From Alphaproteobacteria bacterium (GTDB lineage: Bacteria; Pseudomonadota; Alphaproteobacteria; UBA7985): 64,000 nt of DNA. The notes beneath the pieces are model-generated. The model made no database searches, was not told the DNA's origin, and worked only from the letters and a program-made list of their open reading frames with translations. The stretch covers positions 10,515 through 74,514 of the forward strand of contig CBFIIW010000001.1 of assembly GCA_965662775.1 (NCBI GenBank). The letters run 5' to 3'. Position 1 is the stretch's first letter; each line of letters opens with the position of its first letter. The position numbers and the translations under genes were made by a program. This document shows positions 19,145 to 64,000 of this stretch, one piece after another.

Positions 19145-20080
19145 CTAGGACGCCCGGCGGCGGGTTACCAGCGAGATACCGCTACCGATAATGACCAGCC
19201 CCACCAGATGATACCAGGCGAACACCTCCCCCAGCACCAACCAAGCAATCCCGCCTGAGAAAATGGGCATGAGATTGATAAAGACGCCTGCGCGATTGGA
19301 ACCGAGCAGTTTCACCCCTCTGTTCCAGAAATAAGCTGCAGCCAGCCCCGGACCCAGCGTAATGTAGGTTACGGCGGCGATCACCCCCGGTGTCAGATCG
19401 GTCAGCCCATTCTGTGTTACGTTCCAGATGAAGAAGGGTGAGAGAAACACAACACTGGCCGTCACGAGCACCCACAGAAACCCAAGGTCGGACAGCCCTT
19501 CGGGCCGCAATCGGATCAGTACGGTGAAGACCCCGTACATTACCACAGCGCCGAGCATCCAAAGTACGGACTCGGTCAGGTCCAACCCGAGGAGATGAGC
19601 CGGTTGCCCGGCGGCGACCACCAGCAGCGCGCCAACGATGCAAACGCCGGTGCCCAGCGCCTGAAGCCAGCTTAATCGGTCGCGAAAGAGGATGAACCCC
19701 GCCGTCACCACCACTGCAGGCATCGTGGTTTGCAACACGGCCACTGTTGGCACAGGTCCGGCGGCAAGCGAGAAGTAAACAAAGCTAACGAACAAAGCAT
19801 GGCCCAGTATCCCGATCGCGGCCAGTGGCAGCCAGTGCCGACGCAAAAGCGTGAAGTCAGCGCGAATGGTTTCGCGCCGACCGGTGTGCCAGCTTATGGC
19901 AAAAAAGGCAGTGAGGATCAGAGTAGCGCTGAAGAACCGGAAAAATGATAGCTGAAATGGCGGGATATCCAGCTCACCGCCCGCAATACGGGCTGCCACA
20001 AAGTGGCCCGACCACAAAAGGACGGTCATCACACACAGCAAGGCACCATTCGACCAAATTAACCGTCCTATCTGCGTCAT
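19145..20080 (-). CDS. DMT-superfamily (EamA-like) transporter
   Basis: 311 aa with 10 predicted TM segments and duplicated EamA-like halves. Confidence 0.75.
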   Translation of the reverse strand: MTQIGRLIWSNGALLCVMTVLLWSGHFVAARIAGGELDIPPFQLSFFRFFSATLILTAFFAISWHTGRRETIRADFTLLRRHWLPLAAIGILGHALFVSFVYFSLAAGPVPTVAVLQTTMPAVVVTAGFILFRDRLSWLQALGTGVCIVGALLVVAAGQPAHLLGLDLTESVLWMLGAVVMYGVFTVLIRLRPEGLSDLGFLWVLVTASVVFLSPFFIWNVTQNGLTDLTPGVIAAVTYITLGPGLAAAYFWNRGVKLLGSNRAGVFINLMPIFSGGIAWLVLGEVFAWYHLVGLVIIGSGISLVTRRRAS

Positions 20081-25627: not shown

Positions 25628-26617
25628 TTGGACGCTAGTGCTGCCAAGCCGTTTGACGCGGAAGCAGACATCATTGCCTGGTGCGCCGACCGTGGTTTGC
25701 CGGTGCAGGTGCTGGAATCGATGCCTGATGGCGCGCTCAACCTGCATTGGTTACTGCGGCACACCGGAACAGGGGAGGAGCTTGTTTTTCGCTGCCGGGC
25801 CAAAGGTCACTGGCTCACTGAAGGCTTCGACGCTGAAGCACGCGCGATGGTGCTTGCCGCACGGGCGGGCTTGATGGTGGCTGAGGTTCGCGCGGTTGGT
25901 GCGCGAGCGATGGTAACCACCAAGGTGAAGGGCACGGCCGATCGGCAGGTGGTCATCGGCGCAGCAAGGGAGGAGGCTAAGGCTAAGGCTAAGGCTAAGG
26001 CTAAGGCTAAGGCAGGGGCAGGGATGCGTACCGAGGTAGAGGGCAGCTTTAGCGGGAGCGTGGTCTATCAACTACAGTGCCTTCGGCAGAACACGGTAGT
26101 TAGCGACACAGCACAGCTGGGTCCAGGCTGGCTGACAGCGGTGATTGACCGCTATATTGCGGCCCCGCAGGGCGGGCTTAGCCTGCTCGATGCGCCAAAC
26201 CGCGCGCGGGGCATAGCCCGTGCGGCCGAAGCGGCAGGATTGGGACGCGTCTGCCTGAACCACGGTGATTTTCGCACGGGAAACCTACTGGTTAGCGGCG
26301 GTCGATTGTGCGGTGTGCTCGACTGGGAATTTGCGGGCTATAGGCCGGAAGAAGCGGACATTGGTTGGATGCTGTCATCACCTTGGCGCTATGACCGTCC
26401 TGATCTCGAAGCTAGCGGGCTGATGAATCGACAGGCACTGATGTCCGCCGTGGGGCAGGCTCCCACGGCACGGCTGGCGAGGTGGGAGGGGCTGGCGCTT
26501 GTGCGATGGGCCGTGATTGCACGCCGGCAGGATCAGCGTCAGCAGGTGCCGCCGGGCACCAATGCGGATGAAGTGGCCCTGCTGGACGAAGCCGAGGCGC
26601 TTGTTAGTGCTGCCTAG
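25628..26617 (+). CDS. phosphotransferase-family kinase (APH-like); start codon uncertain
   Basis: Brenner/APH motif ...CLNHGDFRTGNLLV...GVLDWEFAGY.... The longer ORF from 25271 would run antisense through selD, so a downstream start (TTG at 25628 or later) is assumed. Confidence 0.65.
   Translation: MDASAAKPFDAEADIIAWCADRGLPVQVLESMPDGALNLHWLLRHTGTGEELVFRCRAKGHWLTEGFDAEARAMVLAARAGLMVAEVRAVGARAMVTTKVKGTADRQVVIGAAREEAKAKAKAKAKAKAGAGMRTEVEGSFSGSVVYQLQCLRQNTVVSDTAQLGPGWLTAVIDRYIAAPQGGLSLLDAPNRARGIARAAEAAGLGRVCLNHGDFRTGNLLVSGGRLCGVLDWEFAGYRPEEADIGWMLSSPWRYDRPDLEASGLMNRQALMSAVGQAPTARLARWEGLALVRWAVIARRQDQRQQVPPGTNADEVALLDEAEALVSAA
25975..26010. repeat. (GCTAAG)6 perfect hexanucleotide microsatellite inside the kinase CDS, encoding (AK)6
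   Basis: Six exact gctaag units. They translate to AKAKAKAKAKAK in frame. Confidence 0.9.
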
Positions 26618-44894: not shown

Positions 44895-44984
44895 TCGATG
44901 CGAGAGGCGTGGACGAGGGCGCTTTGGCCCTTACAACTGTTTCCAAGGTTCGCTTTAAGGGCGCACCCAGCTACGGCTGGTGCA

Positions 44985-45446
44985 ATGCTACTGCTGCTAC
45001 TGCTACTGCTGCTGCTGCCGTTGCCCTTACCTGCCTTAGCCTCAGGGACGGGCGAGGGGACAGGAGACGGCGTTCAGTGGTTGCGTATGACCCATGCGGA
45101 TTTTCTGGCGATACTCGACGCCAATCCCGAAGGGTTCACGCTGGTTTTTACCGATGCTGAAGGCCAGTGGCTTGGGCGCGAGTATCATAGCCCAGATTTG
45201 CGGGTTTATCTGGAGTTTGGCTCGGATCGAGAACGGATCACCGGCCAGTTAGCTTTGGCTGAGGGCGATCAGTTCTGCTACCGATACCCCAGCTACTCAC
45301 AGGAATTTTGCTGGCTGTATTTCCAGTCAGAACAGGGGTTTATGGAAGAAAGTACAACAACTGACGAAGTTGACTTCTTTGCGGTCGTACCGGGTAACGT
45401 CTTTGTCGAGGATTTTGGAACAAGATGGTCACAACGCTTTGATTGA
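44985..45446 (+). CDS. hypothetical secreted protein with poly-Leu signal peptide
   Basis: MLLLLLLLLLLPLPLPALASGTGEG.... The signal peptide is encoded by a CTG/CTA-rich run at 44988-45017. The 182-aa ORF from 44898 is the alternative. Confidence 0.45.
   Translation: MLLLLLLLLLLPLPLPALASGTGEGTGDGVQWLRMTHADFLAILDANPEGFTLVFTDAEGQWLGREYHSPDLRVYLEFGSDRERITGQLALAEGDQFCYRYPSYSQEFCWLYFQSEQGFMEESTTTDEVDFFAVVPGNVFVEDFGTRWSQRFD
44988..45017. repeat. CTG/CTA-rich trinucleotide run encoding poly-Leu
   Basis: cta ctg ctg cta ctg cta ctg ctg ctg ctg, i.e. 10 consecutive Leu codons. Confidence 0.8.
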
Positions 45447-49387: not shown

Positions 49388-52120
49388 TCAACTGCGCAAG
49401 AAAGGCGGTGGCCGTCCTTGCTCTGATTCTGGTTCGGTTTTCAGGCCGCTGGCCCAGTCTTCAAGCACAGCTCGGCTGAGCTGCCATTGCCTGCTCAGTT
49501 CAGGCAGTGCGGCTTGGAGCGTTTCTGGCCGAGCTTCGATTACTGCGGCTTGCGCTGACAGCACGGTTAGACCATAGGACGCGGCCGCCCCCTTGATGGC
49601 GTGAGCTTCCCTTATCACTGGGTTGGCAGTATCGCTGCCACCGCCATGCCTGTCGAGCGTGAGTGCTTCTTCGAGCCTGGTCAGCCTCTGCTGGATCTCA
49701 GTGCAAAAAATCTCTATCGACGAAACAAGGAAACGTGTCCCCATTCGCTTGGCAAACTCATCAAGCATGGAAAGGTCAACGTTGATGGTTTCAGGCTCGC
49801 CGGTCGCGTTCTTAGCAACGGGTATGTCTGCCACCGGGGCGGCGTCGGGGCCGTACGTGCGGATTGCGTCGAGTAGCTCATGCTCCTCAAAGGGCTTGGA
49901 GATGACCGCTGTGAAGCCGTCTGCGAGAAAACTCTCCCGATCACCCGACATTACGTTGGCCGTCAGAGCGATGATCGGCAATGGGGCGATATCTGAATCT
50001 GTGAATTGGCGCGCAAGCCTCCCACGGCTCTGACGCGATAGTACCTCCGCCAGCGCTTCACGTCCGTCCATCTCAGGCATAGAGATATCAAAGAATGCGA
50101 GATCGTAAGGCAGTGTTTCCAGGGCACGTACGGCCTCCAACCCATTAAAGACGATATCAACCTGATGACCTGTGGGTTGAAGCATGGCGCGAATGAGTAA
50201 CTGGTTTGATGGACTGTCGTCTGCAAAAAGTAGACGCAGAGGCGCATCGTCTCCGACGTTGGTTATGTCTGTGCGAGCCAGCGCCGAAGCGTCATCACGA
50301 GGCGGGTGTTCCGCGCCCACTGTTTTCAGTTCTACTTCAAGCCAAAAAGTGGATCCGAGGCCCGGCTGAGATTGGATACCAACCTCTCCTCCCATGGCTT
50401 CAGCGATACGCCGACAGATATTTAGACCTAGCCCGGTCCCACCCTGACGCTTTTCGACCCCGACACCCAGCTGTTCGAACGGTTCGAACAATCGAAGTTG
50501 TGCGTTTGCCGAGATGCCCGGACCGGTATCTGCGACTTCGAAGCGTAGTATCGCGCGATCATTCGCGCCCGGGTCACGTGCGGAGAGCGTGACGTTAAGG
50601 TCGATGCGCCCGGAGTTGGTGAACTTTATGGCGTTGGAGGTAAAATTAATCAGCACTTGCCGCAGGCGTCCGGCGTCCGCATGAACGGCGTGGGGCAGGG
50701 CATGGTCTAGGGTCCAATTCAGAGCCAGTTGACGGGCCTCGGCTGGCTTTTTGTAAAGTCGCATCACCTCTTGCAGCAGTTGTTCCAATACAACGTGCTG
50801 ATCCTCTAGCGTGATCTTGCCAGCTTCCATTTTGGACACGTCAAGGATGTCGTTGAGCAGGATAAGCAGATTGCGCGCTGAGGTATCTGCCACCCCGATA
50901 TATTCGCGCTGGCTGTCCGACAGACTCTCGCGCTGAATCAGACCAAGCATGCCGAGGATTGCATTCAAAGGGGTGCGGATCTCGTGGCTGACGGTCGCGA
51001 GGAACTCCGACTTTACTGCATTGGCGGCCTCGGCTTCGTTCCGGGCGAGGGTAAGATCCTGCTCTTTCTGTGCCAGCTCTGAGATGTCGAAACGCACGCC
51101 GACTGTCCAGCCGTTTGGCAGGCGACGGTCCGTCGCCCGAATAGTGCGACCATCGCGGAGCCGTTGCCGTCGGGTGCGGATGGTTCGTGCCCAGCTGGAG
51201 GGGTCCATTTCGGCAGCCACGAGTGACTGAAGATCGCCTGAGTTCGTTGGCGAAGAGGGGTTGGCGCCGGTGTTGGCATTTGCGCCGTCATCCCTGCCGG
51301 TTCCGGCGTCGGCAATGAACCCGCATTTATATTCCTCCCGCCAGACTGACTTGATATCGATGCCCGGAACATAGAGGTCAGCGAACGCGTAGTAGATCTG
51401 TCGATAGCGCTCGTTTGTCACCACGATGCGGTCATGCTCGTCGACGACGTAGACCCCTTCTCCCAGAGAATCCACGGCAGCCAGAATAAAGTCGGTCTGG
51501 TCACGTTCGGCCTGAGACGACAGACGCACGAGCGCTGATTGAAGCTCATCCTCCCGCACACGCGTCATCCGCAGCGCCTGTGACACCAGCAGGCCGAAGC
51601 GTTGCACGGCCGTCGAAGAGACGGTGTTGAACCCTCCCTTATCCGGACTGGTACACACGATCGCCACCATTCCGGTTTCTTGGGGGACAGAGATTGTCAG
51701 AGTGGAGACAACACCGGCGCGCATGGCCGCAGGCTGTGATGTCCAGTCTGTGACAGCAGCAATGTTAAAGATGGGGACCACCGTGCCCGATTTCACGCGT
51801 TTGAAATGAGGGCTCATTTCAAAACGCGCGAGGTCAAACCGTGGATCGGTGCTGGCCACGACATGGAGTGGTTCACCGCCGAAGGGCTGCCGCAGGATGA
51901 AGGCATCGGCGAACGCGACGCTTTCTCCAAGAATAGCGAGCGATTTCTGATAGACCTGCTCAGCGCGTTCAGAGAAGCCCAAGTCGCGAAGGCTTTCTAA
52001 AAGGAACTCTGTTTCCAGACGCGTCTGTCGTTCCCGGACCGTGGCCTGTTTGAGGGAGACGAGAGCTTCGCGCAGCCGCTCTTCGAGCAGTTCAGGCTGT
52101 GAGGGTGAGTCTACCTTCAT
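49388..52120 (-). CDS. cytoplasmic hybrid sensor histidine kinase (N-terminal sensory region + PAS, HisKA, HATPase_c, REC, HPt)
   Basis: H-box ...VSHEIRTPLNAILGM..., G-boxes ...VADTGPGI..., ...GGTGLGLNI.... Receiver ...LLFADDSPSNQ...FFDISMPEMDG.... C-terminal HPt ...REAHAIKGAAASYGL.... No TM segments. Confidence 0.85.
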   Translation of the reverse strand: MKVDSPSQPELLEERLREALVSLKQATVRERQTRLETEFLLESLRDLGFSERAEQVYQKSLAILGESVAFADAFILRQPFGGEPLHVVASTDPRFDLARFEMSPHFKRVKSGTVVPIFNIAAVTDWTSQPAAMRAGVVSTLTISVPQETGMVAIVCTSPDKGGFNTVSSTAVQRFGLLVSQALRMTRVREDELQSALVRLSSQAERDQTDFILAAVDSLGEGVYVVDEHDRIVVTNERYRQIYYAFADLYVPGIDIKSVWREEYKCGFIADAGTGRDDGANANTGANPSSPTNSGDLQSLVAAEMDPSSWARTIRTRRQRLRDGRTIRATDRRLPNGWTVGVRFDISELAQKEQDLTLARNEAEAANAVKSEFLATVSHEIRTPLNAILGMLGLIQRESLSDSQREYIGVADTSARNLLILLNDILDVSKMEAGKITLEDQHVVLEQLLQEVMRLYKKPAEARQLALNWTLDHALPHAVHADAGRLRQVLINFTSNAIKFTNSGRIDLNVTLSARDPGANDRAILRFEVADTGPGISANAQLRLFEPFEQLGVGVEKRQGGTGLGLNICRRIAEAMGGEVGIQSQPGLGSTFWLEVELKTVGAEHPPRDDASALARTDITNVGDDAPLRLLFADDSPSNQLLIRAMLQPTGHQVDIVFNGLEAVRALETLPYDLAFFDISMPEMDGREALAEVLSRQSRGRLARQFTDSDIAPLPIIALTANVMSGDRESFLADGFTAVISKPFEEHELLDAIRTYGPDAAPVADIPVAKNATGEPETINVDLSMLDEFAKRMGTRFLVSSIEIFCTEIQQRLTRLEEALTLDRHGGGSDTANPVIREAHAIKGAAASYGLTVLSAQAAVIEARPETLQAALPELSRQWQLSRAVLEDWASGLKTEPESEQGRPPPFLRS

Positions 52121-52129
52121 CGCAGCGGG

Positions 52130-53317
52130 CTAGTGCGGCGTCGTCCCAAACACGACGACCGAAATCATCAAGTTACCGTGGTGATTTGTACCACCGATGA
52201 AGCATCCCTGTTCACCAAAGGTGAAGTTGCCCAGAAACGGCCGATGTCCCAGCGAGGCCGAAAGCCCGGCGGACACCTCGTCCATGCGGTCGCGGACGGT
52301 CAGCATGCATCCTGCGCAATAGATCACCAGCGCACCGGCAATTTCATCTGGCTGCAAGCGTGCCATATCCAAGGCATTCTCGGCGACGGCTCCCGCCCGT
52401 TGGACCAGATTGTCACTTGAACCAATCATCATGGTTACTTCGTCACCGACTTCGATGTTGGAGAACAGCGACAAGGCCCGATTTGAGGTGACAGCATTGG
52501 GATGAGAGAGCAAAAAGTAGTCGAACCCGGCAACGGCATCCCGTCGGCGTCCCAGTGGGTTATGGGTGGTATCAAAAAGGACGTTTCCGCCGTCGTCCAT
52601 GGCGTGACTAACGACCCCTTCGGTCCAGTCATTGTAGACTTCAGCCCCTGGCCGGCCGTCGATTTCGATGATGTTACGGCCCTCAGCACGGGTTACAAAC
52701 CCCTTGGTCGCCGTCGGTTGATAACCGGATTGAAACGCGTATCCCAAGGGAACCGAGGGAAACATTACCGTGATTGCTACAGCCGTGGCGTGGGCGACGC
52801 GCTGATTGAAGACGACCCAGTTTCCCGCAACCTCATTGTCCGCCGCAGTTCCACCGCAGATCGGAACCCCGGGACCGATCACATCCTGCAGTCCCTCGAT
52901 GACATCTTCTTCTTGCCCGGGTGTTGCAGTCAACCATACCAGTTCCGGCGACTCACCCGGGCGCCCAGCACGCTCAAGCGCTTCAACCAACGCCTCTGCG
53001 GCGGCACCCGCAGCATTTCCGTCAACCACCTGAGCAATCGCTGATCCATAATCCCCGTCAGGGTCCGATATTGCCAGAAAGCCGCAATTGCTTTCGCCTT
53101 CGGTAAAGGAACCGGTCTGCGTCATAACCCCGGCGCAGGAGGTCGAGCCATGGAAGGCCACGTCAGGACTGATCGAGGCGAGCATGCCCTCTCGCGGCGT
53201 ATCCGTCGAAACGCCGCCGACGATTAGTGAAACGGGGCCATCAAGCTGCGCGAGTGCCTCCGCCAACGTTGCCTTGGGGTCCGACGCAAGTGCGCCACTG
53301 CTGGCCATGGAAAACAT
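52130..53317 (-). CDS. FIST-domain sensory protein (FIST_N + FIST_C)
   Basis: 395 aa, Gly-rich. It matches the FIST architecture (about 400 aa, two-lobed). It lies immediately upstream of, and co-oriented with, the hybrid kinase. Confidence 0.7.
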   Translation of the reverse strand: MFSMASSGALASDPKATLAEALAQLDGPVSLIVGGVSTDTPREGMLASISPDVAFHGSTSCAGVMTQTGSFTEGESNCGFLAISDPDGDYGSAIAQVVDGNAAGAAAEALVEALERAGRPGESPELVWLTATPGQEEDVIEGLQDVIGPGVPICGGTAADNEVAGNWVVFNQRVAHATAVAITVMFPSVPLGYAFQSGYQPTATKGFVTRAEGRNIIEIDGRPGAEVYNDWTEGVVSHAMDDGGNVLFDTTHNPLGRRRDAVAGFDYFLLSHPNAVTSNRALSLFSNIEVGDEVTMMIGSSDNLVQRAGAVAENALDMARLQPDEIAGALVIYCAGCMLTVRDRMDEVSAGLSASLGHRPFLGNFTFGEQGCFIGGTNHHGNLMISVVVFGTTPH

Positions 53318-53616
53318 AAATCAAAGCCCTTTATTGCCGGTTACAGATTGATGGCGCCTCGTACACCCTGTGCTCTTGGTGCTCTGAGCATTGCCATGAC
53401 TGACATACTCCCTTAAATAGTTAAGCGATAGGTGGTTTAAAGTATACGGATATTAAGTCGGCTGTTTTCTACCCGGAGACGGGTACGTGGCAGCAGACCG
53501 CGGTCAGACCCTGTAAGCTGCAATCCGCCATTGGCAGCGGATCAGTTTGCACAGTACCCACAGAGCAGGCCGCGCGCTGCTAGACCAATGGCGCTACAAG
53601 ACATGAAGGTTTTCCC

Positions 53617-55089
53617 ATGCTGCCCTCGCTGCTGATAATTGAAGACTCGCCGTCGATGCTGCACATGTATCAGGGGTTTCTCGCGCATGAGCGGCTGGAA
53701 ATCTTTGTGGCCGATACGGGGGCTGAGGGTTTGCGGCTGCTGCGTCAGCAAAAACCGAACCTCCTGCTGCTCGACCTAAAGCTCCCCGACATGGACGGGC
53801 AGCAGATCCTCGAGGCAATGACCGAAGAAGGCTTGGAAACTGTCGCGGTGGTGATGACAGCGCACGGCTCTGTCAATGTTGCGGTTGAGGCAATGCGGCT
53901 GGGGGCAGCAGACTTTCTGGTGAAACCCTTTACTCAGGAACGGCTTATAAAGACCCTGAACACCGTCACAGAGTTGCATCAGCTCAAGCACCAGGTTGCC
54001 GTTTATCGAGAACTCGATCGCCCGTCGTATGATGAGATGATCGGCAGTTCGCTGCCGATGCAGGCGGTTTATCGCACCATCGATTCTGCCGCTCCTACGG
54101 ATGCCACCGTTTTCATTGTGGGAGAAACCGGCACGGGGAAGGAACTGGTCGCGCAGGCGTTGCATCGCGGCTCACGAAGGGCAGGGGGAGAATTGGTGGT
54201 TCTGAACTGTGCCGCTATTCCGAAAGACCTGATCGAATCCGAACTCTTCGGGCACGTCAAAGGTGCCTTCACTGGCGCGACCGGAGATCGAGACGGCGCT
54301 GCGCACCTCGCCGCGGAGGGGACGCTGTTCCTCGACGAAATCGGGGAGATGGACATCAGCCTGCAGTCCAAATTATTGCGGTTTCTGCAATCTGGCACAT
54401 TTCAGCGGGTAGGATCGTCCCGCACCGAGAGCTCTAACGCCCGCATCATATGCGCCACCAACCGGGATGCCTGGGGCGCGGTGCAGGCCGGAACCTTTCG
54501 CGAAGACCTCTACTACCGCCTGAACGTTATCCCGATCGTTCTGCCGACACTGCGTCAACGCGGTGATGATGTGATCGAGATTGCGCGACATTTCCTACAC
54601 GTCTTTGCCCGCCATGATGGCAAGGCCTTCACCGATTTTGATGACGCAGTGCGGAGCTTACTATTGAACTACAATTGGCCTGGAAACATTCGTCAGCTCC
54701 AGAACGTGGTGCGAAACATCGTCGTCCTGCACGACGGCGACCAAGTCACGCAAGACATGTTCCCGCCCCTGGAGCAGGTGGCACTCGATAAGGGCGCAGC
54801 AGGAACTGGATCGGCCAGCACTGGCTTCGAAACGGGGAGCGTCGCGGCCGTCCCACTGCACGCCGGTGAGATGTCGAGAGTTGGGCAGATGGGGGCAGGG
54901 CCGTCGACTGCAGGACGTACATATCCTCCTTTGCCTATGAGCGAAGCTGACCTGCGCCCCATGTGGCTGATCGAGCAAGAAATGATCGATCGAGCGCTCG
55001 AATTGACGAGTGGGAACGTAAATCGTGCGGCGGCACTACTAGAAATTTCGCCCTCAAGTGTCTACCGCAAGCGTTCGCGTAACACCTGA
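53617..55089 (+). CDS. sigma-54-dependent response regulator (NtrC family enhancer-binding protein)
   Basis: REC domain (LLLLDLKLPDMDG), AAA+ sigma-54 interaction domain (VFIVGETGTGKE, GAFTGA, ...ESELFGH...), and a C-terminal Fis-type HTH. Confidence 0.9.
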   Translation: MLPSLLIIEDSPSMLHMYQGFLAHERLEIFVADTGAEGLRLLRQQKPNLLLLDLKLPDMDGQQILEAMTEEGLETVAVVMTAHGSVNVAVEAMRLGAADFLVKPFTQERLIKTLNTVTELHQLKHQVAVYRELDRPSYDEMIGSSLPMQAVYRTIDSAAPTDATVFIVGETGTGKELVAQALHRGSRRAGGELVVLNCAAIPKDLIESELFGHVKGAFTGATGDRDGAAHLAAEGTLFLDEIGEMDISLQSKLLRFLQSGTFQRVGSSRTESSNARIICATNRDAWGAVQAGTFREDLYYRLNVIPIVLPTLRQRGDDVIEIARHFLHVFARHDGKAFTDFDDAVRSLLLNYNWPGNIRQLQNVVRNIVVLHDGDQVTQDMFPPLEQVALDKGAAGTGSASTGFETGSVAAVPLHAGEMSRVGQMGAGPSTAGRTYPPLPMSEADLRPMWLIEQEMIDRALELTSGNVNRAAALLEISPSSVYRKRSRNT

Positions 55090-56976: not shown

Positions 56977-57148
56977 GGGTTTGCCAGACAGTCCCCAGTC
57001 GTCCTGCTCATTCACGGCCTAGTGACACGTCTCATACGGGTTTAAACGCGACAGGTTTCCCTTAATAGAATATTCTGCTACCTGCCTTTTCGGTGGGCTG
57101 GCCGTGATGTGGCATCGTCCAACGCCGGGACTTTCCTCGAAACAAAGG

Positions 57149-57568
57149 ATGCCATTGATGAATGGAATTCTCTTCGCCGCGTTTCTAGCGGCTCTGTTGG
57201 CCCTGGTGAACACAACAACAAGTGCAGGGCATCATTCGCCAATTTATCCGGTGCTGTACGGCGGCGAGCCAGACTATGACGCTTGCTTTGGGACTGCGAC
57301 AGTTGGTGGATTGCGTGCCGATGGCGACGGATTTCTTGCGGTTCGCACTGGACCGGGCGTTGGCTATCCCATGATCGACAAACTCATCAACGGTCAGCCC
57401 GTGTCGTTGTGCTGGGCGACCGATGACGTGGACTGGTATGGCGTGGTCTACACCCGAGAGGATCAGGACTGCGGAACCGGTTCCAACATCCCGCTGGTCC
57501 AAGCCTATCCCGGACCGTGTTTGTCAGGCTGGGTACACCGAAATTGGCTGCGTAGCTTCGCTGACTGA
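57149..57568 (+). CDS. small secreted protein with bacterial SH3-like segment
   Basis: Signal peptide MPLMNGILFAAFLAALLALVNTTTSAG. ...GFLAVRTGPGVGYPMIDKLINGQPV... resembles SH3b (LNVRSGPGTNYPVIGKL). Confidence 0.45.
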   Translation: MPLMNGILFAAFLAALLALVNTTTSAGHHSPIYPVLYGGEPDYDACFGTATVGGLRADGDGFLAVRTGPGVGYPMIDKLINGQPVSLCWATDDVDWYGVVYTREDQDCGTGSNIPLVQAYPGPCLSGWVHRNWLRSFAD

Positions 57569-57728
57569 AGCCTGGACCGCAGATCCTTTGCTGCTCCTCG
57601 CTGACTTTGCGCTGAAACCCGGGATCACGCGGCGCAACAGACGCCCATTTTCCATAATATTCATTATACGACTTTTAAGTTGGCTTTCACCGAACTGGCC
57701 GCGGGCACGCGCGGCTTCTTGCTGCCAA

Positions 57729-59270
57729 TCAGCCCTTTTGATCGCTATCGTCAGTTAAGGACTTTTCATCGCTGGTCGCGCTGTCCGAGGTGGTTGTTCG
57801 CTTTGTGTCGCTATTGGTGTTCGACAAAGTGGTGAATGTTGTCGTGGACGTGCGTGTTGGCTGGGTTGTGATATCGGATGTCGACGTGCTCAAAGTCCCG
57901 AAACTCGATGTCGTGCTGATCGATGGTGAAGACGTGATGGTGCTTATCGTCGTTCGGGTCGATAGTGTCGTTGTGTTCACCGTCGGCGTGCGCAACGTTG
58001 TGGTGCCGATGGTGTTGCTGGCTGCGGCCGTCGTTGTGTTGCTTGAGGTGGTATCGCTGGTCTTGGTATCGGTTGTGTTGGCAGTATTTGTGGTCGCGGT
58101 TGTGGTTGCTGCTGTCGTTCCGGCGGCGCCCGCTGTGTCGGAATTCGCTCGGCGATTGTTGGTGCGATCTGAATTGTCGTCGCGATCGTTACTGCCCGTA
58201 TTCAGGAGCGCCCTGGCGGCTGAGGCTCGATCCGCTGCTTCATTCTCGGACTGCCTGCTTGTGCTGGCATTGGTTGTCTGGGTGTCTTGCGTGGTAAAGC
58301 TAGAACCGGCGTATTGATCTGGAAAGGCATCAACCCGCGCTTGAAGTGCGCTCCGGGCCTCAAAGAACAGCTCACTGGTTTTACCCTGAAGACTGTCTTC
58401 TCCCTCTTGATCGGCCATTGTATCAGCTATCTTGTCCAGGCTGCCCTCTGCGTCCTGCTGCAACGAACCGAGCGCAGAAAGCCGCTCAAAGTGGTTCTCG
58501 ACCTCTGCGAGACAGGAATTCGCGGTTTCACAGTTTTCGAGCGAGCCCAGCAACAGATACGTGGTCATGTATTCAGCCACGCCACCGGAATAGAAAAACG
58601 GGTTGTCAAACGCTTCACCAAGCTCATTCAACAGCGCTAGCAGGATTCCGTCTGGGTCTGTGAAAGCCTCAAACCCCTCTGCCCCAACAGACAAAAAACG
58701 GCGTCCACCGGCTGCCGTGTCGAGATCAAGCGTCTCGCCGTTAGCCAGTTCCATGGTCAGGGCGCCGTCATGCAGCCCAAGGTGAACCACGCCTGATGGT
58801 TCTACCAAAACGGTAAAGCGCGTGCCCCGAATGGACAAGCTGCCTACAGGCGTATCAATGCTATACGCCGCCTTATCCATTCGGCCGGTTGTGAAACGCG
58901 TTAAACCATTGACCAGCCTCAGCGCTAGATTTTGCCGCGCTCGGCCCGGGTCGTAGACGAAGGAATCTAGCAAAATCTCGGAATTCGGACCGATGCGCAA
59001 CTCGGTGCTGTCATCGAAGCGAATATCGGCGCTGGATGCCGCCAAGGCCCACACGGATTCATTGGCAAAGGTGCGCCCGCCTGATCGACCCCAGGCAAAG
59101 GCTTCGTCGAGATAGCGACGTTGTACGGCATTATTCACGGCCGTAAATGCGCCGATTTCTGGCTCTGTCGGCAGACTACCGCTGACTGCAGCAACCTGAT
59201 CTTGAGCCAGCGCAGCAGTTCCCGCTAGAGTAAACAGGGAAGCCACAACCAGTCGACCGAGGCAGTCCAT
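57729..59270 (-). CDS. secreted FecR-domain protein with CxxxxC segment and about 200-aa Thr/Ser-rich mucin-like C-terminal tail (paralog A)
   Basis: SD ggaaaggag then MDCLGRLVVASLFTLAGTAALA signal. FecR-like beta-sandwich (...IDTPVGSLSIRGTRFTVLVEPSGVVHLGL...), then CETANSC, then a tail with more than 55% Thr/Ser (TTAATTTATTNTANTTDTKTSDTTSSNTTT...). Confidence 0.6.
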   Translation of the reverse strand: MDCLGRLVVASLFTLAGTAALAQDQVAAVSGSLPTEPEIGAFTAVNNAVQRRYLDEAFAWGRSGGRTFANESVWALAASSADIRFDDSTELRIGPNSEILLDSFVYDPGRARQNLALRLVNGLTRFTTGRMDKAAYSIDTPVGSLSIRGTRFTVLVEPSGVVHLGLHDGALTMELANGETLDLDTAAGGRRFLSVGAEGFEAFTDPDGILLALLNELGEAFDNPFFYSGGVAEYMTTYLLLGSLENCETANSCLAEVENHFERLSALGSLQQDAEGSLDKIADTMADQEGEDSLQGKTSELFFEARSALQARVDAFPDQYAGSSFTTQDTQTTNASTSRQSENEAADRASAARALLNTGSNDRDDNSDRTNNRRANSDTAGAAGTTAATTTATTNTANTTDTKTSDTTSSNTTTAAASNTIGTTTLRTPTVNTTTLSTRTTISTITSSPSISTTSSFGTLSTSTSDITTQPTRTSTTTFTTLSNTNSDTKRTTTSDSATSDEKSLTDDSDQKG

Positions 59271-59481
59271 GTTCTCACGCTCCTTTCCAGACACGTATGC
59301 CTTATTTTAAATGCAAAACCCTTAAGACACAAATTTCAATGGATGCCATCTTGTTACATATTGTTTCAATTGACTGCAGGTGGTCAGGCCGTCAGACGCT
59401 GGCAACACTTCGGTTCAAATACGCCAGGTGGGATCGATCGAGCGTGGTCTTTAAGCTTCAAATGGGTCATTCAGGACAGCG

Positions 59482-60594
59482 ATGACTGATCCCATGCCCC
59501 CTGCCCCACGGAACACAAAGGCTTCGGTCCGCCTTTCGGATACCGCGCCCACAGCGCCCTCACCCGCTCACAGGTCTCCAGGCCCGAAGTTGGCGCTGGT
59601 TGTGCCTTGCTTCAACGAGGCTGCACAATTGCCCACAACCTTTCGGGCTTTGTCAGCCAAGCTGTCAAAGCTGGTAGCCGACGGTAGTATCCATTCGGAT
59701 AGCTTTGTGCTGTTCGTCGACGATGGCTCTTCGGATGAAACCTGGGACCAAATCACAGCACAGACCGCCAGCGATCCACGCTGTCAGGGCCTGCGGTTGG
59801 TGGTGAACGTAGGTCAGCAGACCGCAATTTTTGCCGGCTTACAGGCGGTCGCACTGCGTTGTGACGCAGCCCTTAGTCTTGATGCCGATCTGCAGGACGA
59901 CCTCAATGCGATAGAAGCTATGCTGGCGCATTTGGCCAAAGGTGCCGAAATCGTACTTGGCGTGCGCAGCGATCGGGACAGCGACAGCTGGTTTAAGCGC
60001 AGCAGTGCCCGGATGTTTTACCGGTTTGCACGCACGCTCGATGTGCGTTTGACCGCTGACCATGCCGACTATCGCTTAATGGCGCGGCCTGTGTTGCTGC
60101 GGCTGATGCAGTTTGGCGAACAGGATCTGTTTCTCCGGGCGACGCCGGGACTGCTGAGCGGTAACGTCGCTGTGGTGCGCTACCGGCGCTTACCTCGGGC
60201 TGAAGGCCAGTCTCACTATCCACTCTCCCGCATGCTGGGCCTGGGCTGGACGGGGATCAGTTCTTTTTCTCTCTGGCCGCTGCGGTTGATAACCCTGGTC
60301 GGCTTGCTGACTTCCGCGCTGTCTGTTCTGCTGACAGTTTACGCCGTGCTGTCCTGGGCGAGCGGCAACGCGATCGCGGGATGGACGTCAATTTTTGTCG
60401 CGCTGACGCTGTTTTCCGGGCTGACGCTTCTAGCGCTGGGAATCATCGGCGAGTACGTCGCCAAGATTTACCGCGAAGTCGTCCGTCGTCCTCGCTACTT
60501 CGTCGAGCAGAGCACGTGGCATGATGAAGAGAATGCAGCCGACGCCTCGTCCAAGCCTCAATCAACAGGCTCTTCGCTACCACGACGATCTTAA
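59482..60594 (+). CDS. family-2 glycosyltransferase, polyprenyl-phosphate sugar transferase type (GtrB/ArnC/DPM1-like) with C-terminal TM helices
   Basis: ...LALVVPCFNEA..., ...VLFVDDGSSDET..., DAD motif LDADLQDD, and two C-terminal TM segments. The true start may be an internal TTG/GTG near 59586. Confidence 0.8.
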   Translation: MTDPMPPAPRNTKASVRLSDTAPTAPSPAHRSPGPKLALVVPCFNEAAQLPTTFRALSAKLSKLVADGSIHSDSFVLFVDDGSSDETWDQITAQTASDPRCQGLRLVVNVGQQTAIFAGLQAVALRCDAALSLDADLQDDLNAIEAMLAHLAKGAEIVLGVRSDRDSDSWFKRSSARMFYRFARTLDVRLTADHADYRLMARPVLLRLMQFGEQDLFLRATPGLLSGNVAVVRYRRLPRAEGQSHYPLSRMLGLGWTGISSFSLWPLRLITLVGLLTSALSVLLTVYAVLSWASGNAIAGWTSIFVALTLFSGLTLLALGIIGEYVAKIYREVVRRPRYFVEQSTWHDEENAADASSKPQSTGSSLPRRS

Positions 60595-60621
60595 AGGCGG
60601 GTAGCCCCGCATGCGATCTAC

Positions 60622-62984
60622 TTAAATCAGTGCGGCCATGAGGTCGGCGGTCGATACCCCTGCCCCGGCAACGGCGCCGAAGGTCAACTGTATACTTAGC
60701 GTGCCAAGGTCTGTGTATTGATAGTCCGCTCCTGCGACCGACAGATTTGAAGTATTTGCCGCGCCGGGAATATCGACCGTGTCGCCGTCGGTGACATCAA
60801 AATTCGAAATGGTGAGACCAGCCGCGCCGTTCGGAATGACCAGTGAATCTGCCGCAACATCGCTCCCAAAATCGATGGTGCCCGTCAGCGCTGATTGGAG
60901 CGAAAGACTGTCTGGGCCACTTCCGCCAACGTAAGCGAACGTAGCTGAGCTTGCCGTACCAACTGACACGCTATTGCTGCCGTCACCCAGACGGAAGGTC
61001 AGCGTACCCCCGGCCTGATTGCCGACCGTCACCTGATCCGTACCTGAACCGCCATCCAGTGTAATGCTGCTGCCAAACGAGCCAGAGCCAATTGTTACGC
61101 CAGCTTGGTTGCTTATGCTAACGCTGTTGATTCCATTGCCGAGTGTTGCACTCAGATTGCCTGAATTGGCTGCGAGGCTGTTACCGAAGGTGAGCGTATC
61201 ATTTCCTGTTCCTCCAATATAGTTGATCGAAGCACCACTCGCCGCACTATCGCCAACCAACAGGTGATTGTTCCCATTCTGTAAGTCAATCACATGGGGT
61301 CTGGAGACCGCACCTTTACCAAGATTAGAAAGCGGTGAGGGTGAGGACAGGTTTGTGGCCGAGTAGCCGGCAAAAAAGTGTCAAAATTGGTTCCAGTCAG
61401 GCTGAAGTTGGCTGAGTCTGCCACCATAGCGTCCGACCAATAGGTTCCTGTGTCCAGCACGTCACCGACGGTTACGGTCAAGGTTTCGGTATAAGCGTTG
61501 CCTCCTTCGTCCGTCACTCGAACATCAAAGGTATAGCTTGTTTGAACTTCATAATCCGGCTGATTGATGAACGATAACGCCCCGGTGGTATCGTCAATAC
61601 TGAAAGCGAGGTGGTCATTGGTTATGCCATTGCTCACAAGTGCGAAAACGAAATTCGGGTTGGTGGTCTGGTCGTCGACGACCTGCAAAAGACCGACCTG
61701 AAGGGACGTTGCGTTTTCAGCGATGGAGGTGTTTGAGAGTGTAATGGCCGTGGGCGCAGCATCGCCAGTGGGTGGCGTTAGGCTGTTGGGCCCAAGTCCG
61801 GCTCCCGCCCCAGCGCCGAGACCGGTCAGCGCTTCCTCGGTGCCATCGTCCCCGTCACTGTCACCATCCTCGATTGTGCCCGGCGGAAACTTGACATTCG
61901 GCTCATAGGTTTCCTCAACCAGCCCCAGAATCGTGTTGATCTCGATGATCCCCTGATCAACCTGCGCCGTATTTCCACCGGCCTGCTGAATCTGTCCACG
62001 AATGTCAATCAAGGCCTGCTGCGCGTCCTGTAATTCGACAAAGTTTTCGCTCAACTCGGCGAGGAACTCTTGGGCAAGGGGACCACACTCGCCGCCGTTC
62101 AGACAGGCCTCAATAATCTCTGGTCCAAAGATCTCCGACTTGTACGCGACGATAAAATTCGGGTGAGCACTGGGGGTATCCGACGGCACCTGTATGCTGT
62201 TGAAGGCGGGCGTGATCCCGCGCTGCTGCACTTCAATTGTGCCGCCCTCGGATTTGGTTGCAAATAGAAAGTTCGCCAGAGGGCTATCGCCACGGGCCGT
62301 CGCCGTTAGTCGGCCTGTGGCATCGAGCATGCCAACTTCACCTGTCAGTACGGCAATGGATACTCCATCGAACGGCTCAACGAAAAATACAACCTCGCTC
62401 CCGCGGATTGCGGCTGTCCCAACCGGTGTATCGACCTTGTAAGACCCGTCAGGCATAGAACCTGTCGTCAGTTTCGCCATGCCTGAAAGGATATTGATGG
62501 ACAGGCTGCCTTCGCTGGTGCCCGGCTCGTATATGTATTCATCAAGCGAAATCTCTGAATAAGGCCCCACCGTCAGAGTTGACCAATCGTCAAAGGTCAG
62601 CACCGCTAGGCCATTTTCGTAGGAGCTCACGATTTCGTTGGAGATCAGACGGTCCCCCGCCCTGCCCTCACCGAACTTCTGATCGCGGTAAAATCGATCG
62701 ACCTGCGACTGCACCTGCTCGAACGCGCCGATCTCCACTTCGCCACGCTCCATGACTTGCTCAGCGGTCAACTCGACCAGCCCTTGCCCATGGGCCAGCG
62801 TGAGACCAAAGCCACCGGCAAAGGCCACGGATGACAAAAGCGTTCGACGATGACCTCGTCGGCCAGGCACCAGCTGACGGCCAAAGCACGAAGGTGCCAA
62901 CGGGACCCCAGCAATAGAGATCACTGGTGCGGAAGAAAGTTGATCTGTGTCGAATAAGAAGCGCATTTTACCGAAGTTTTCCAA
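60622..62984 (-). pseudogene. secreted FecR-domain / cadherin-like / Gly-Ser-rich repeat protein (paralog B), split by a -1 frameshift at a T6 run (plus-strand A6 at 61372-61377); either a pseudogene, a sequencing error or a slippage site
   Basis: The upstream ORF (61290..62984) has a signal-like RRTLLSSVAFAGGFGL, then a FecR-like domain paralogous to 57729..59270 (...VDTPVGTAAIRGSEVVFFVEPFDGVSIAVL...), then CLNGGEC, then a cadherin-like repeat (NPNFVFAL...LSFINQPDYE...VRVTDEGGNAYTETLTVTVGDV). The downstream ORF (60622..61293) is Gly/Ser-rich. Its frame is open back to 61380 and joins cleanly at T_TTT_TTG (...TNFDTF|FAGYSATNLSSPSPLSNLGKGAVSRPHVIDLQ...). Confidence 0.55.
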
Positions 62985-63079
62985 GCATTCGATAGACTTA
63001 CCTCAAAGCCGTGAATGTGCCACTGCTCTCTTACGGTTTGGTTGAATTGAAGCTGTCCAGCCGTGCCAGTTCCGCAACG

Positions 63080-63910
63080 TCAAAGACGGATTACTACGCC
63101 TTCCCGCGCAAACTCAGTCGAAACGTCCGCCTTGCCCTGTGCCGATTCTTGATTCTGCGCCTCAAGCTCCGTATCCGTCAGGCGGGGATCGTAGTGTGTT
63201 GGAATCAGCAGCGGCACGTTCGCTGCTCGACACAGGCTCTGGCCTGCCTGCCAGTGAGAATGACCCCAGCCGTGATGCTTCGGCCAGGCTTCGGGGCTGT
63301 ACATGCAGTCATAGATCACAGCATCACAGCCGGACACGAAGGCAATCAGGTCCGGGTCGGCGTCCACGTGTGTTGAATGCTCGACATCGGGGATGAAGGC
63401 AAGGCTGCGTGCCTGCTCACCCGTCCCGCCGTCAAGGCGATAAGCCAGAGCCCCACCAGGGTGATTGACCATCAATGTCTGAACTCCCACGCCACCGATG
63501 GAAAAACAAGTACCCGGCGTGAAGGCATGGAAGTTGAAAGGTTCAAGCACATCCAGACCTATGGGGGTCAATGGCGGCGCCATCAGGTAGCGCAAGGCCT
63601 GCTCTGGTCCCCGCCCGTCGAGTACAGGACCGTAGACGGGGAGCGGGTCTTTGCTTCCATGCCGGAAGAAAGGAAAGCCCAGAAGATGATCAAGGTGATA
63701 ATGCGTGAATAACAGGGCGAGGCTATCCCGCTCCACCGTTTTCATTATGCTCGAATCCAGCCGTGTCAGCCCGGAGCCGGCGTCAAGAATCAGCCCCTGA
63801 CCCTCGATCATAACAAAGAAGCACGTGGTGTCCGTGCCAAAGGACGACGGCCGTGTTGCGCTGCCCGGGTAGGAGCCGCGTACGCCCAGTGGAAGGATCT
63901 CAAAAGTCAT
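63080..63910 (-). CDS. MBL-fold metallo-hydrolase
   Basis: HxHxDH motif ...LLFTHYHLDHLLG.... 276 aa. Confidence 0.8.
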   Translation of the reverse strand: MTFEILPLGVRGSYPGSATRPSSFGTDTTCFFVMIEGQGLILDAGSGLTRLDSSIMKTVERDSLALLFTHYHLDHLLGFPFFRHGSKDPLPVYGPVLDGRGPEQALRYLMAPPLTPIGLDVLEPFNFHAFTPGTCFSIGGVGVQTLMVNHPGGALAYRLDGGTGEQARSLAFIPDVEHSTHVDADPDLIAFVSGCDAVIYDCMYSPEAWPKHHGWGHSHWQAGQSLCRAANVPLLIPTHYDPRLTDTELEAQNQESAQGKADVSTEFAREGVVIRL

Positions 63911-63952: not shown

Positions 63953-64000
63953 TCACTTCTCAAGCGCCTCCCAAACGCCGGACCAGTCCTGCGTCTGATC
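63953..64000 (-). CDS. 3' end of an unidentified CDS that continues beyond the window's right edge
   Basis: An open frame enters from the right edge and ends ...DQTQDWSGVWEALEK*, with the stop at 63953-63955. Confidence 0.3.
   Translation of the reverse strand, partial: DQTQDWSGVWEALEK

Follow-up and report, generated by a model that had tools for sequence, protein, structure and literature searches.

The window studied here is a stretch of 64,000 nucleotides (nt) from contig CBFIIW010000001.1 of an alphaproteobacterial assembly (GCA_965662775.1), and our analysis concerns the genes near its right-hand end (57104-63910). They include two genes for exported proteins with a FecR domain, which we call paralog A and paralog B, and a glycosyltransferase gene of the GT2 family lying between them; their relation to a CHASE2 cyclase gene found just beyond the end of the window is the main subject of this report. 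An earlier note on this DNA had proposed that these genes form a dedicated protein O-glycosylation or surface-adhesin system. Protein families were called with the Pfam gathering cutoffs (24 bits for FecR PF04773, 28.8 for Cadherin and 27 for SH3_3) and with the NCBIfam cutoffs. Compared loci and contigs carry L-numbers, and contigs encoding an identical A protein were used to extend the locus past position 64000, over about 20 kb in L001. The coordinates of the features are compiled in Table 1.

Table 1. Features of the FecR/GT2 region at the right-hand end of the window; lengths of proteins are in amino acids (aa).
Feature	Position	Strand	Basis
Small secreted protein, 136 aa as called	57158..57568 (open reading frame, ORF, open from 57104)	+	weak SH3_3 match
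Paralog A, 513 aa	57729..59270	-	FecR 44.8 bits; AlphaFold2 (AF2) model; orthologs
Conserved spacer block of about 70 nt	59300..59368	-	alignment of 8 lineages
GtrB/ArnC-type GT2, 370 aa	59482..60594	+	Glycos_transf_2 67.3 bits; alignment with GtrB 5ekp
Paralog B, detached C-terminal ORF, 223 aa	60622..61293	-	three-frame translation
Paralog B, N-terminal ORF, 558 aa from the ATG at 62966	61290..62966 (open from TTG 62984)	-	FecR 34.8 bits; Cadherin 36.9 bits
Frameshift lesion in B	61369..61382	-	allele comparison
Metallo-beta-lactamase (MBL)-fold hydrolase, 276 aa, last gene of the window	63080..63910	-	Lactamase_B_2 55.5 bits

Both A and B contain a FecR domain that scores above the gathering cutoff in Pfam (Table 1), and BLASTP aligns the two proteins with 40% identity over 143 aa (E 6e-31); judged by this alignment, they are paralogs. 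The N-terminus of A resembles a signal peptide (MDCLGRLVVASLFTLAGTAALA, followed by QDQ) and that of B is also signal-like, with the FecR domain beginning about 40 to 70 residues past this N-terminal sequence in both. Neither an anti-sigma domain nor an internal transmembrane (TM) segment was found in A or B with Pfam and from the hydrophobicity of the window proteins. After the FecR domain comes a C-x5-C segment (C247 and C253 in A), both cysteines of which are invariant in alignments of five and nine family members. On these points the earlier description was accurate: it had recognised the FecR domain, the alignable blocks of the two paralogs and the conserved cysteine pair, and had taken A and B for secreted-type FecR proteins with low-complexity or adhesin-like tails.

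The predicted fold of A agrees with the family assignment. An AF2 model of residues 25-330, obtained with 45 input sequences (pLDDT 92.4, pTM 0.89), shows a beta-sandwich and then a five-helix bundle, with the cysteine pair at the loop/helix junction. In Foldseek the sandwich matches PupR (6OVK, entry 6ovk_R, E 8.9e-7) and BDI_1681 (4M0N, E 3e-5) with a probability of 1.00 and a root-mean-square deviation of 2.6 Å over about 134 columns. A sub-match of 62 columns links the sandwich to the "cell surface anchoring domain" 5IX9, which was also the sole match (32 bits) of a sequence-profile search of the PDB. For the helical bundle, Foldseek returned no match in the PDB, the database against which it was run.

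The remainder of A, residues 321-513 (about 190 aa), is the disordered, Thr/Ser-rich tail of some 200 residues already described in the earlier note. It has 32% Thr and 17% Ser, 48% for the two together, and 58% over its last 113 aa (401-513); no tandem DNA repeats were found beneath it. Orthologs and homologues of A, 48-52% identical, are present in every relative found. Because their tails have just 23-32% Ser+Thr, ending in a conserved Pro/Ile/Thr-rich "...TPISPP..IGN", the extreme composition of the tail of A is lineage-specific.

Paralog B had been taken for a single ORF covering 60622..62984, which is not the case: in the window it is split by a frameshift into two ORFs that lie in different frames. 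The upstream ORF (564 aa if counted from the TTG) terminates in 22 out-of-frame residues, and the downstream ORF, which holds Gly/Ser-rich repeats, has a GTG start that overlaps the stop of the upstream one (ATGTGA). Relative to the intact allele, the lesion consists of a 2-nt insertion and substitutions; the site reads GACACTTTTTTGCC in the window and in L001, L002 and L004, and GACGATTTTGCC in L003. Two contigs from other assemblies of the same population, L003 and L024, encode an uninterrupted B of 780 aa. The uninterrupted frame reads "...YWSDAM...DDFAGY...", in agreement with "...FWSDAM...DSFVGY..." in homologues of about 35% identity and with "DDFIGY" in another distant homologue, and for this reason we regard the allele of the window as the derived one.

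The AF2 model of intact B (pLDDT 70) has the same FecR sandwich and helical bundle as A, after which come a disordered acidic/Gly-Ala linker, a cadherin fold, a beta-solenoid of short strands and a disordered C-terminus. Foldseek matches this model to many cadherin EC domains (E about 1e-4, probability 1.00) and also to BDI_1681, and Pfam finds one Cadherin domain in the protein. The solenoid (residues 557-720 of the intact protein, pLDDT 70-88) is Gly/Ser-rich and holds three GGxGxD motifs; it matched no Pfam or NCBIfam family, including HemolysinCabind, in Pfam even at E<=10. The earlier note was right in seeing a cadherin-like repeat and Gly/Ser-rich, beta-helix-like repeats in B. We also considered B as an RTX or type-I-secreted protein and rejected this assignment for want of a family match and of type I secretion system (T1SS) partners.

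Several alleles of B coexist. In the cluster of B proteins at 90% identity, the intact form of 780 aa is found in at least 12 contigs, the frameshifted form of 558 aa in at least 18, and a doubly broken form, with 285 aa ending in "...GPEII" plus 254 aa with the same frameshifted end, in 7-9. Independent frameshifts occur in other lineages, at a G6 run in L022 (about 11560-11575) and at residue 104/105 in L023 (about position 504). Since intact, singly broken and doubly broken alleles are present in one population, B is decaying; it is recurrently inactivated and probably a pseudogene in this strain, and the frameshifts in three lineages suggest a recurrent loss of the cadherin/solenoid protein. 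Neither programmed -1 frameshifting at the T-run of B nor an error of sequencing there is likely, because the complex 2-nt indel is identical in independent assemblies and intact alleles coexist with it on contigs 99.6-99.95% identical to the window, some contigs carrying a second lesion. Upstream of B, about 40 nt before the ATG, we noted a sigma-54-like site, TGGCAC-N5-xxGC (TGGCACATTCACGGC, 63008-63022, minus strand); it is not conserved in L022 and L018 and, with six relaxed matches in the window, is probably at chance level.

The neighbourhood of A and B continues past position 64000. In the contigs with an identical A protein the gene order is TM protein (75 aa), membrane protein binding cyclic nucleotides (cNMP; 459 aa), TM protein (101 aa), CHASE2 cyclase (763 aa), MBL-fold hydrolase, B, GT2 and A, with GT2 on the strand opposite to the rest of the cyclase-to-A block. 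The cyclase, recognised in L001 by a CHASE2 domain (177 bits) and a class-III Guanylate_cyc domain (75 bits), stands two genes away from B and four away from A, and the MBL gene is directly downstream of it in L001 as well as in every relative. Over its full length the MBL protein weakly matches the cyclic-nucleotide phosphodiesterase model NF041851 (32.6 bits, cutoff 400), with RNase Z models scoring higher (48 bits), and may be regarded as a candidate cyclic-nucleotide phosphodiesterase. The statement in the earlier note that no sigma factor or TonB receptor accompanies the FecR proteins holds true, since neither an extracytoplasmic function (ECF) sigma factor nor a TonB-dependent transducer was found among the called genes and Pfam families over about 20 kb of L001, but it missed the real partner context, the CHASE2 cyclase, which lies just past the end of the window.

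The block is kept in ten related loci (L008-L012, L016-L018 and L022-L023), with identities to the window of 88% for the cNMP-binding protein, 72% for the cyclase and 60% for the MBL protein. Its carriers are metagenome contigs and three metagenome-assembled genomes (Alphaproteobacteria bacterium, "Geminicoccus sp." SP156 and Rhodospirillaceae bacterium). Only some lineages have B, namely the window species, L018, L022 and L023, and in these it stands directly after the MBL gene and is co-directional with the cyclase operon. The cNMP-binding protein (L001:1309-2688), the most conserved product of the block, has at least three hydrophobic segments and a C-terminal cNMP-binding domain; it carries no recognisable output domain and, as a cyclic-nucleotide effector in the membrane, is uncharacterised.

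On its right side, A is flanked by three different sets of genes. The first, CysQ-TfoX-GcrA-NtrC, is that of the window, L012 and L018; the second, found in L016, L017 and L022, comprises p133, p173, Wzy_C, a WecA-like GT4, a PglF-like protein, Wzm and Wzt, and its start is also seen in L007 and L023, whose contigs end within Wzy_C; the third, in L008, consists of FG-GAP/cadherin proteins. Because it remains intact across the three, the cyclase-to-A block is a constant unit. This bears on the description of the region as the most accessory-looking part of the window, which applies to B and to the small SH3b-like gene only; GT2 and A belong to the conserved block.

The second flank (L016:11451-20721, L017:11433-16750 and L022:14912-21605) is co-directional with A. 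It encodes the small secreted proteins p133 (133 aa) and p173 (about 173 aa), a Wzy_C protein with 11-12 TM segments, a WecA/MraY-like GT4 and a PglF/PseB-like dehydratase, and ends with a Wzt that carries a Wzt_C domain, plus an FkbM methyltransferase. None of the genes of this Wzy_C cluster is present in the 64-kb window. As a candidate paralog of the C-x5-C helix, p133 was rejected for lack of significant similarity (BLASTP E 1.8, hhalign probability 0.3%).

FecR proteins were sought more widely with a profile search of 1.84 billion representatives, which gave 12,516 FecR-domain matches, mostly of about 250 aa. At E<=1e-30 the search yielded 13 clusters (50% identity), most of them matching over the FecR domain, the C-x5-C bundle and a variable tail; they measure 444-856 aa where full length, and four are shorter fragments. 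From a metagenome scan we obtained 40 loci of more distant FecR relatives, 21 of them of at least 5 kb. In tblastn, CHASE2-cyclase homologues were detected in 5 of the 40 loci, that is, in 5 of the 21 longer ones, and an MBL homologue in a sixth; none of the 40 had a GT2 homologue. A Pfam census of 117 flanking ORFs had TPR as the commonest family (8 members), with 3 members each for SlipAM and OMP beta-barrel and 2 each for CHASE2 and Guanylate_cyc, and left the GT2 family outside the top 25. As a separate observation, FecR proteins of other bacteria (about 900-1300 aa, or small) often stand beside TPR and Slam-like (SlipAM, TPR_Slam) outer-membrane proteins (L020:9788-15137, L021:590-2942 and L029-L068), a hint of export to the cell surface for some of these proteins.

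Published gene clusters show the same association. Clusters of Campylobacterota combine a CHASE2 adenylate cyclase, a phosphodiesterase, a FecR-domain protein and a TPR protein (PMC9239204), and the "BiofilmReg" operon of Burkholderia a response regulator, a LysM/FecR protein, a CHASE2 histidine kinase and a DUF4136 protein (PMC5192318). In S. meliloti, the CHASE2 cyclases CyaD1, CyaD2 and CyaK act via Clr on the target SMc02177, which is a FecR-domain protein (PMC5498481). FecR proteins of this kind are recurrently partnered by a CHASE2 sensor or cyclase. We use "FecR partners of CHASE2 sensors" in the sense of a genomic association, not of a curated family, and the signal sensed by CHASE2 domains is not known (PMC5192318).

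Drawing on the domains observed in the two paralogs, on the conserved block and on the adjacency of FecR and CHASE2 genes in unrelated lineages, we propose that A and B work outside the cytoplasm as standalone input or partner subunits of the CHASE2 class-III cyclase module, and we give this proposal an even chance of being right. The FecR sandwich, perhaps together with the Cys-stapled bundle, would contact the periplasmic CHASE2 domain (cyclase residues about 39-385), in a manner modelled on the contact between the FecR/PupR domain and its transducer. The variable tails (Thr/Ser in A; cadherin and calcium-type solenoid in B) may act as "antennae" that point to the envelope or the surface and determine the input. 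The rest of the module would comprise the two small TM proteins, the membrane cNMP-binding effector, the CHASE2 cyclase and the MBL hydrolase as a possible phosphodiesterase. Because B is frameshifted and decaying, A would be the functional copy in this strain.

Several facts weigh against this proposal. For FecR and CHASE2 proteins the papers cited above give co-localisation or co-regulation only, and no physical or genetic link. The GT2 gene on the opposite strand, and sometimes B as well, stands between A and the cyclase operon. The clade is narrow, which makes its synteny weak evidence, and the housekeeping genes GcrA and CysQ are also partly syntenic. The TPR partner of the published clusters is not present in the block, and a cyclase accompanies FecR in just 5 of the 21 longer distant loci. 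Finally, five sister lineages have A at the start of a co-directional series of genes that ends in Wzy_C, WecA-like and Wzm/Wzt genes, so A could belong to envelope-glycan biology.

The gene between the two paralogs encodes a full-length GtrB/ArnC-type polyprenyl-phosphate sugar synthase, in agreement with the earlier note. Residues 36-343 align with 27-328 of GtrB sll0501 (5EKP, E 4e-41) with the DADLQD motif conserved, and the GT-A domain is followed by two C-terminal hydrophobic (TM) helices. In NCBIfam its best match is PgfS (NF047588, 175.4 bits, cutoff 500), with ArnC next at 122 bits. Every relative has an ortholog of 67-71% identity at this position.

In each of the relatives found, GT2 and A are divergent neighbours, as had been noted for the window. 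The spacer of about 188 bp reported earlier presupposes that translation of A begins at the GTG at 59294; with the ATG at 59270 as the start, a codon preceded by AAGGAG at a distance of 8 nt and in line with the starts of the orthologs, the spacer measures 211 bp. About 30-100 nt upstream of this ATG lies the conserved block of Table 1, TGAAACAnTnTGyAACA ... TTGTGTC ... ATTTAmA, with runs of invariant columns across 8 lineages, the remaining spacer being poorly alignable. We regard it as a candidate promoter/operator for A, possibly shared with GT2.

The dedicated O-glycosylation or adhesin module of the earlier note would have the sugar supplied by GT2 flipped across the membrane and transferred to the tail of A (and to B) by a GT-C enzyme encoded elsewhere, the glycan then protecting or functionalising these surface proteins. 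The composition of the tail of A fits such a role, as do the invariable divergent pairing of GT2 with A and the conserved block between them. In sister lineages a Wzy_C-family protein is encoded three genes downstream of A, and this family takes in O-oligosaccharyltransferases as well as O-antigen ligases. The best NCBIfam match of GT2, PgfS, is a protein-glycosylation synthase of S. mutans, and there are precedents in streptococci, where GtrB and a GT-C enzyme act on extracytoplasmic Ser/Thr-rich disordered regions (PMC12041528), and in the Pgf system (PMC5856776). The PgfS score, however, is far below its cutoff, with GtrB and ArnC scoring similarly, and GT2 is equally conserved where the tails of A have the much lower Ser+Thr content of the orthologs. 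No GtrA flippase or GT-C partner is encoded in the window or in the extended locus of about 20 kb, nor were the membrane transferases PgfM1 and PgfM2 or the epimerase PgfE found in the locus; the sole window candidate with at least 8 TM segments is a 311-aa protein (about 9 TM, 19145-20080), and the extended locus has none. The co-occurrence of GT2 and FecR-tail proteins in relatives, which the earlier note had named as a check, holds in the whole syntenic clade but in none of the 40 distant FecR loci. With the pairing confined to one clade and no GT-C partner in the locus, the claim of a dedicated system is not upheld, and we consider it unlikely.

The nearest GT2 homologues outside the clade point in another direction. 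At 50-58% identity, they stand beside GtrA, GtrII (PF14264), ManC, GDP-mannose dehydratase, a CmcI methyltransferase and a Hexapep acetyltransferase, those at 50-52% having GtrA and GtrII as neighbours, and no FecR protein is present near them. The earlier note had named membership in a lipopolysaccharide or O-antigen pathway as a finding that would speak against its idea, and these gtrA/GtrII and GDP-sugar clusters are in part such a finding. By analogy with these homologues, the GT2 product most likely feeds the modification of an envelope glycan; its link to the FecR proteins is unproven, and a role in tail glycosylation is possible.

From here one may go further and suppose that the whole arrangement is a juxtaposition, in which GT2 serves a gtr-type side-chain modification of O-antigen or capsule, A and B are independent adhesin-like proteins, and the shared synteny is inherited without any tie to the cyclase. 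Beyond the GT2 homologues, this is consistent with the O-antigen cluster of the ABC-transporter type (Wzy_C, GT4, PglF-like, Wzm and Wzt) that abuts A in L016, L017 and L022, with the cadherin domain and GGxGxD repeats of B, which are typical of adhesins, with its recurrent inactivation, often seen in surface proteins, and with the FecR-like sub-fold in the anchoring domain 5ix9. Yet the cyclase-to-A block is unbroken in three right-flank contexts, and unrelated FecR relatives have independently come to lie beside CHASE2 cyclases, in the loci surveyed here and likewise in the literature. Machinery for adhesin delivery is also missing nearby: no T1SS pair of ABC transporter and membrane fusion protein was found, the one gene with ABC_membrane and ABC_tran domains standing at the opposite end of the block, some 6 kb away from B, without an HlyD-type partner, and no two-partner secretion or autotransporter genes occur near A and B. 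We hold such a juxtaposition to be improbable.

The role of A and B as partners of the cyclase could also be combined with glycosylation: as ligand- or contact-sensing inputs, they would dock on CHASE2 with the FecR domain and bundle, and the tail, extending into the envelope or across it, would be O-glycosylated with the sugar from GT2, so that the state of the glycan or contact at the surface would tune cNMP synthesis; this we judge quite improbable, and if it were true, the recurrent loss of B would amount to a rewiring of sensor input at the population level. Very unlikely, finally, is that A, together with p133 and p173, provides periplasmic accessory factors of the Wzy_C/Wzm/Wzt glycan machinery, with the cNMP module as its regulator and GT2 as one of its enzymes: A, p133, p173, Wzy_C and GT4 are indeed co-directional with short gaps in five lineages, with GT2 immediately upstream and divergent, but in the window lineage and in L012 GT2 and A are retained, with p133, p173, Wzy_C, GT4, Wzm and Wzt all missing over 64 kb, L008 has a different flank again, and p133 has no significant similarity to A.

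The interest of the proposed cyclase partnership lies in the breadth of CHASE2 signalling. CHASE2 heads many cyclases, histidine kinases and diguanylate cyclases, and its recurrent FecR neighbours have so far been reported as co-localisation only. The intact and broken alleles of B within one population are a natural polymorphism that can be used for testing the function of such a partner. Should GT2 glycosylate the tails, GtrB-dependent glycosylation of disordered regions would be extended from streptococci to a Gram-negative signalling protein; should it not, the locus would be an ordinary instance of a signalling module and a glycan-modification gene kept in synteny.

Other features of the region and of the window are less closely connected with A and B. 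The small secreted protein encoded at 57158..57568 had been called SH3b-like, but its SH3_3 match in Pfam is weak and below the cutoff (20.5 bits). It is called as 136 aa in L001-L006, its protein cluster has near-identical members only, and tblastn found no homologue in L007-L018; the gene, found only in the window species, is lineage-specific and probably not part of the module. For structured RNA, Rfam gave no match in the region at E<=1, and scans for promoter and terminator consensus sequences, which found fewer sites than in shuffled sequence, were uninformative. A separate signalling cluster by GcrA (49388-55089) encodes a hybrid histidine kinase with Hpt (49388-52120), a FIST-domain protein (52130-53317) and a sigma-54-dependent response regulator of the NtrC type (53617-55089), and is syntenic in L012 and L018. 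At the other end of the window, an ORF of 782 aa (2550-4898, minus strand) is weakly similar (27% identity, E about 5e-9) to a cadherin/FG-GAP protein that flanks A in L008, and may encode another cadherin-like secreted protein. Runs of simple repeats in the translations at about 25751-26071 and about 44898-45446 (LSLSLSLSLSLSL; LLLLLLLLLLPLPLP) suggest short DNA repeats in or near the ORFs there.

Compared with known systems, A and B share the FecR beta-sandwich with the FecR/PupR anti-sigma regulators (6OVK, 4M0N). They differ from them in having no cytoplasmic anti-sigma domain, no TM anchor and no nearby ECF sigma factor or transducer, and in carrying the FecR domain at the N-terminus instead of after a TM helix; A and B are not FecR-type anti-sigma factors. 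With the RTX/LapA-like adhesins, B has in common an Ig/cadherin-like domain, a predicted GGxGxD solenoid and a disordered C-terminus, and part of the FecR-like sandwich resembles the anchoring domain 5IX9. Unlike them, B has an N-terminal signal-like sequence and a single cadherin repeat, is small (780 aa), and shows no match to HemolysinCabind (PF00353) or to a T1SS C-terminal domain and no T1SS pair nearby; going by its domains, it is not a recognised RTX protein.

GT2 resembles GtrB sll0501 (5EKP; PMC4728340) and ArnC over the aligned length, including DADLQD, the juxtamembrane region and both TM helices, whereas the GtrA flippase and the GtrC/GtrII or ArnT GT-C enzymes are not adjacent to it. 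The streptococcal systems, GtrB/PgtC2 and Pgf (PgfS/M1/E/M2) (PMC12041528, PMC5856776), offer a parallel in that a GtrB-like synthase gene adjoins the gene of an exported protein with a Thr/Ser tail; the present case differs from them in its Gram-negative host, in the absence of a GT-C partner from the loci searched and in a PgfS score of 175 of the required 500 bits.

With the CHASE2-FecR clusters, the locus shares an exported FecR protein without an anti-sigma module near a CHASE2 class-III cyclase, with a hydrolase that may be a phosphodiesterase and a cNMP-binding effector encoded in the same block. It differs from them in having no TPR or LysM partner, in the Cys-stapled helical bundle, which is found in about 13 protein clusters (50% identity, E<=1e-30), in the long tails, the two paralogs and the embedded GtrB-type GT2, and in an effector that is a membrane protein and not a CRP-type regulator. 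The pairing of CHASE2 sensors with FecR proteins is already known, with its mechanism uncharacterised, and this locus is a new variant of it: a compact, conserved version from marine alphaproteobacteria, with modular partners that combine a FecR domain with a new helical C-x5-C domain and with tails that can be exchanged.

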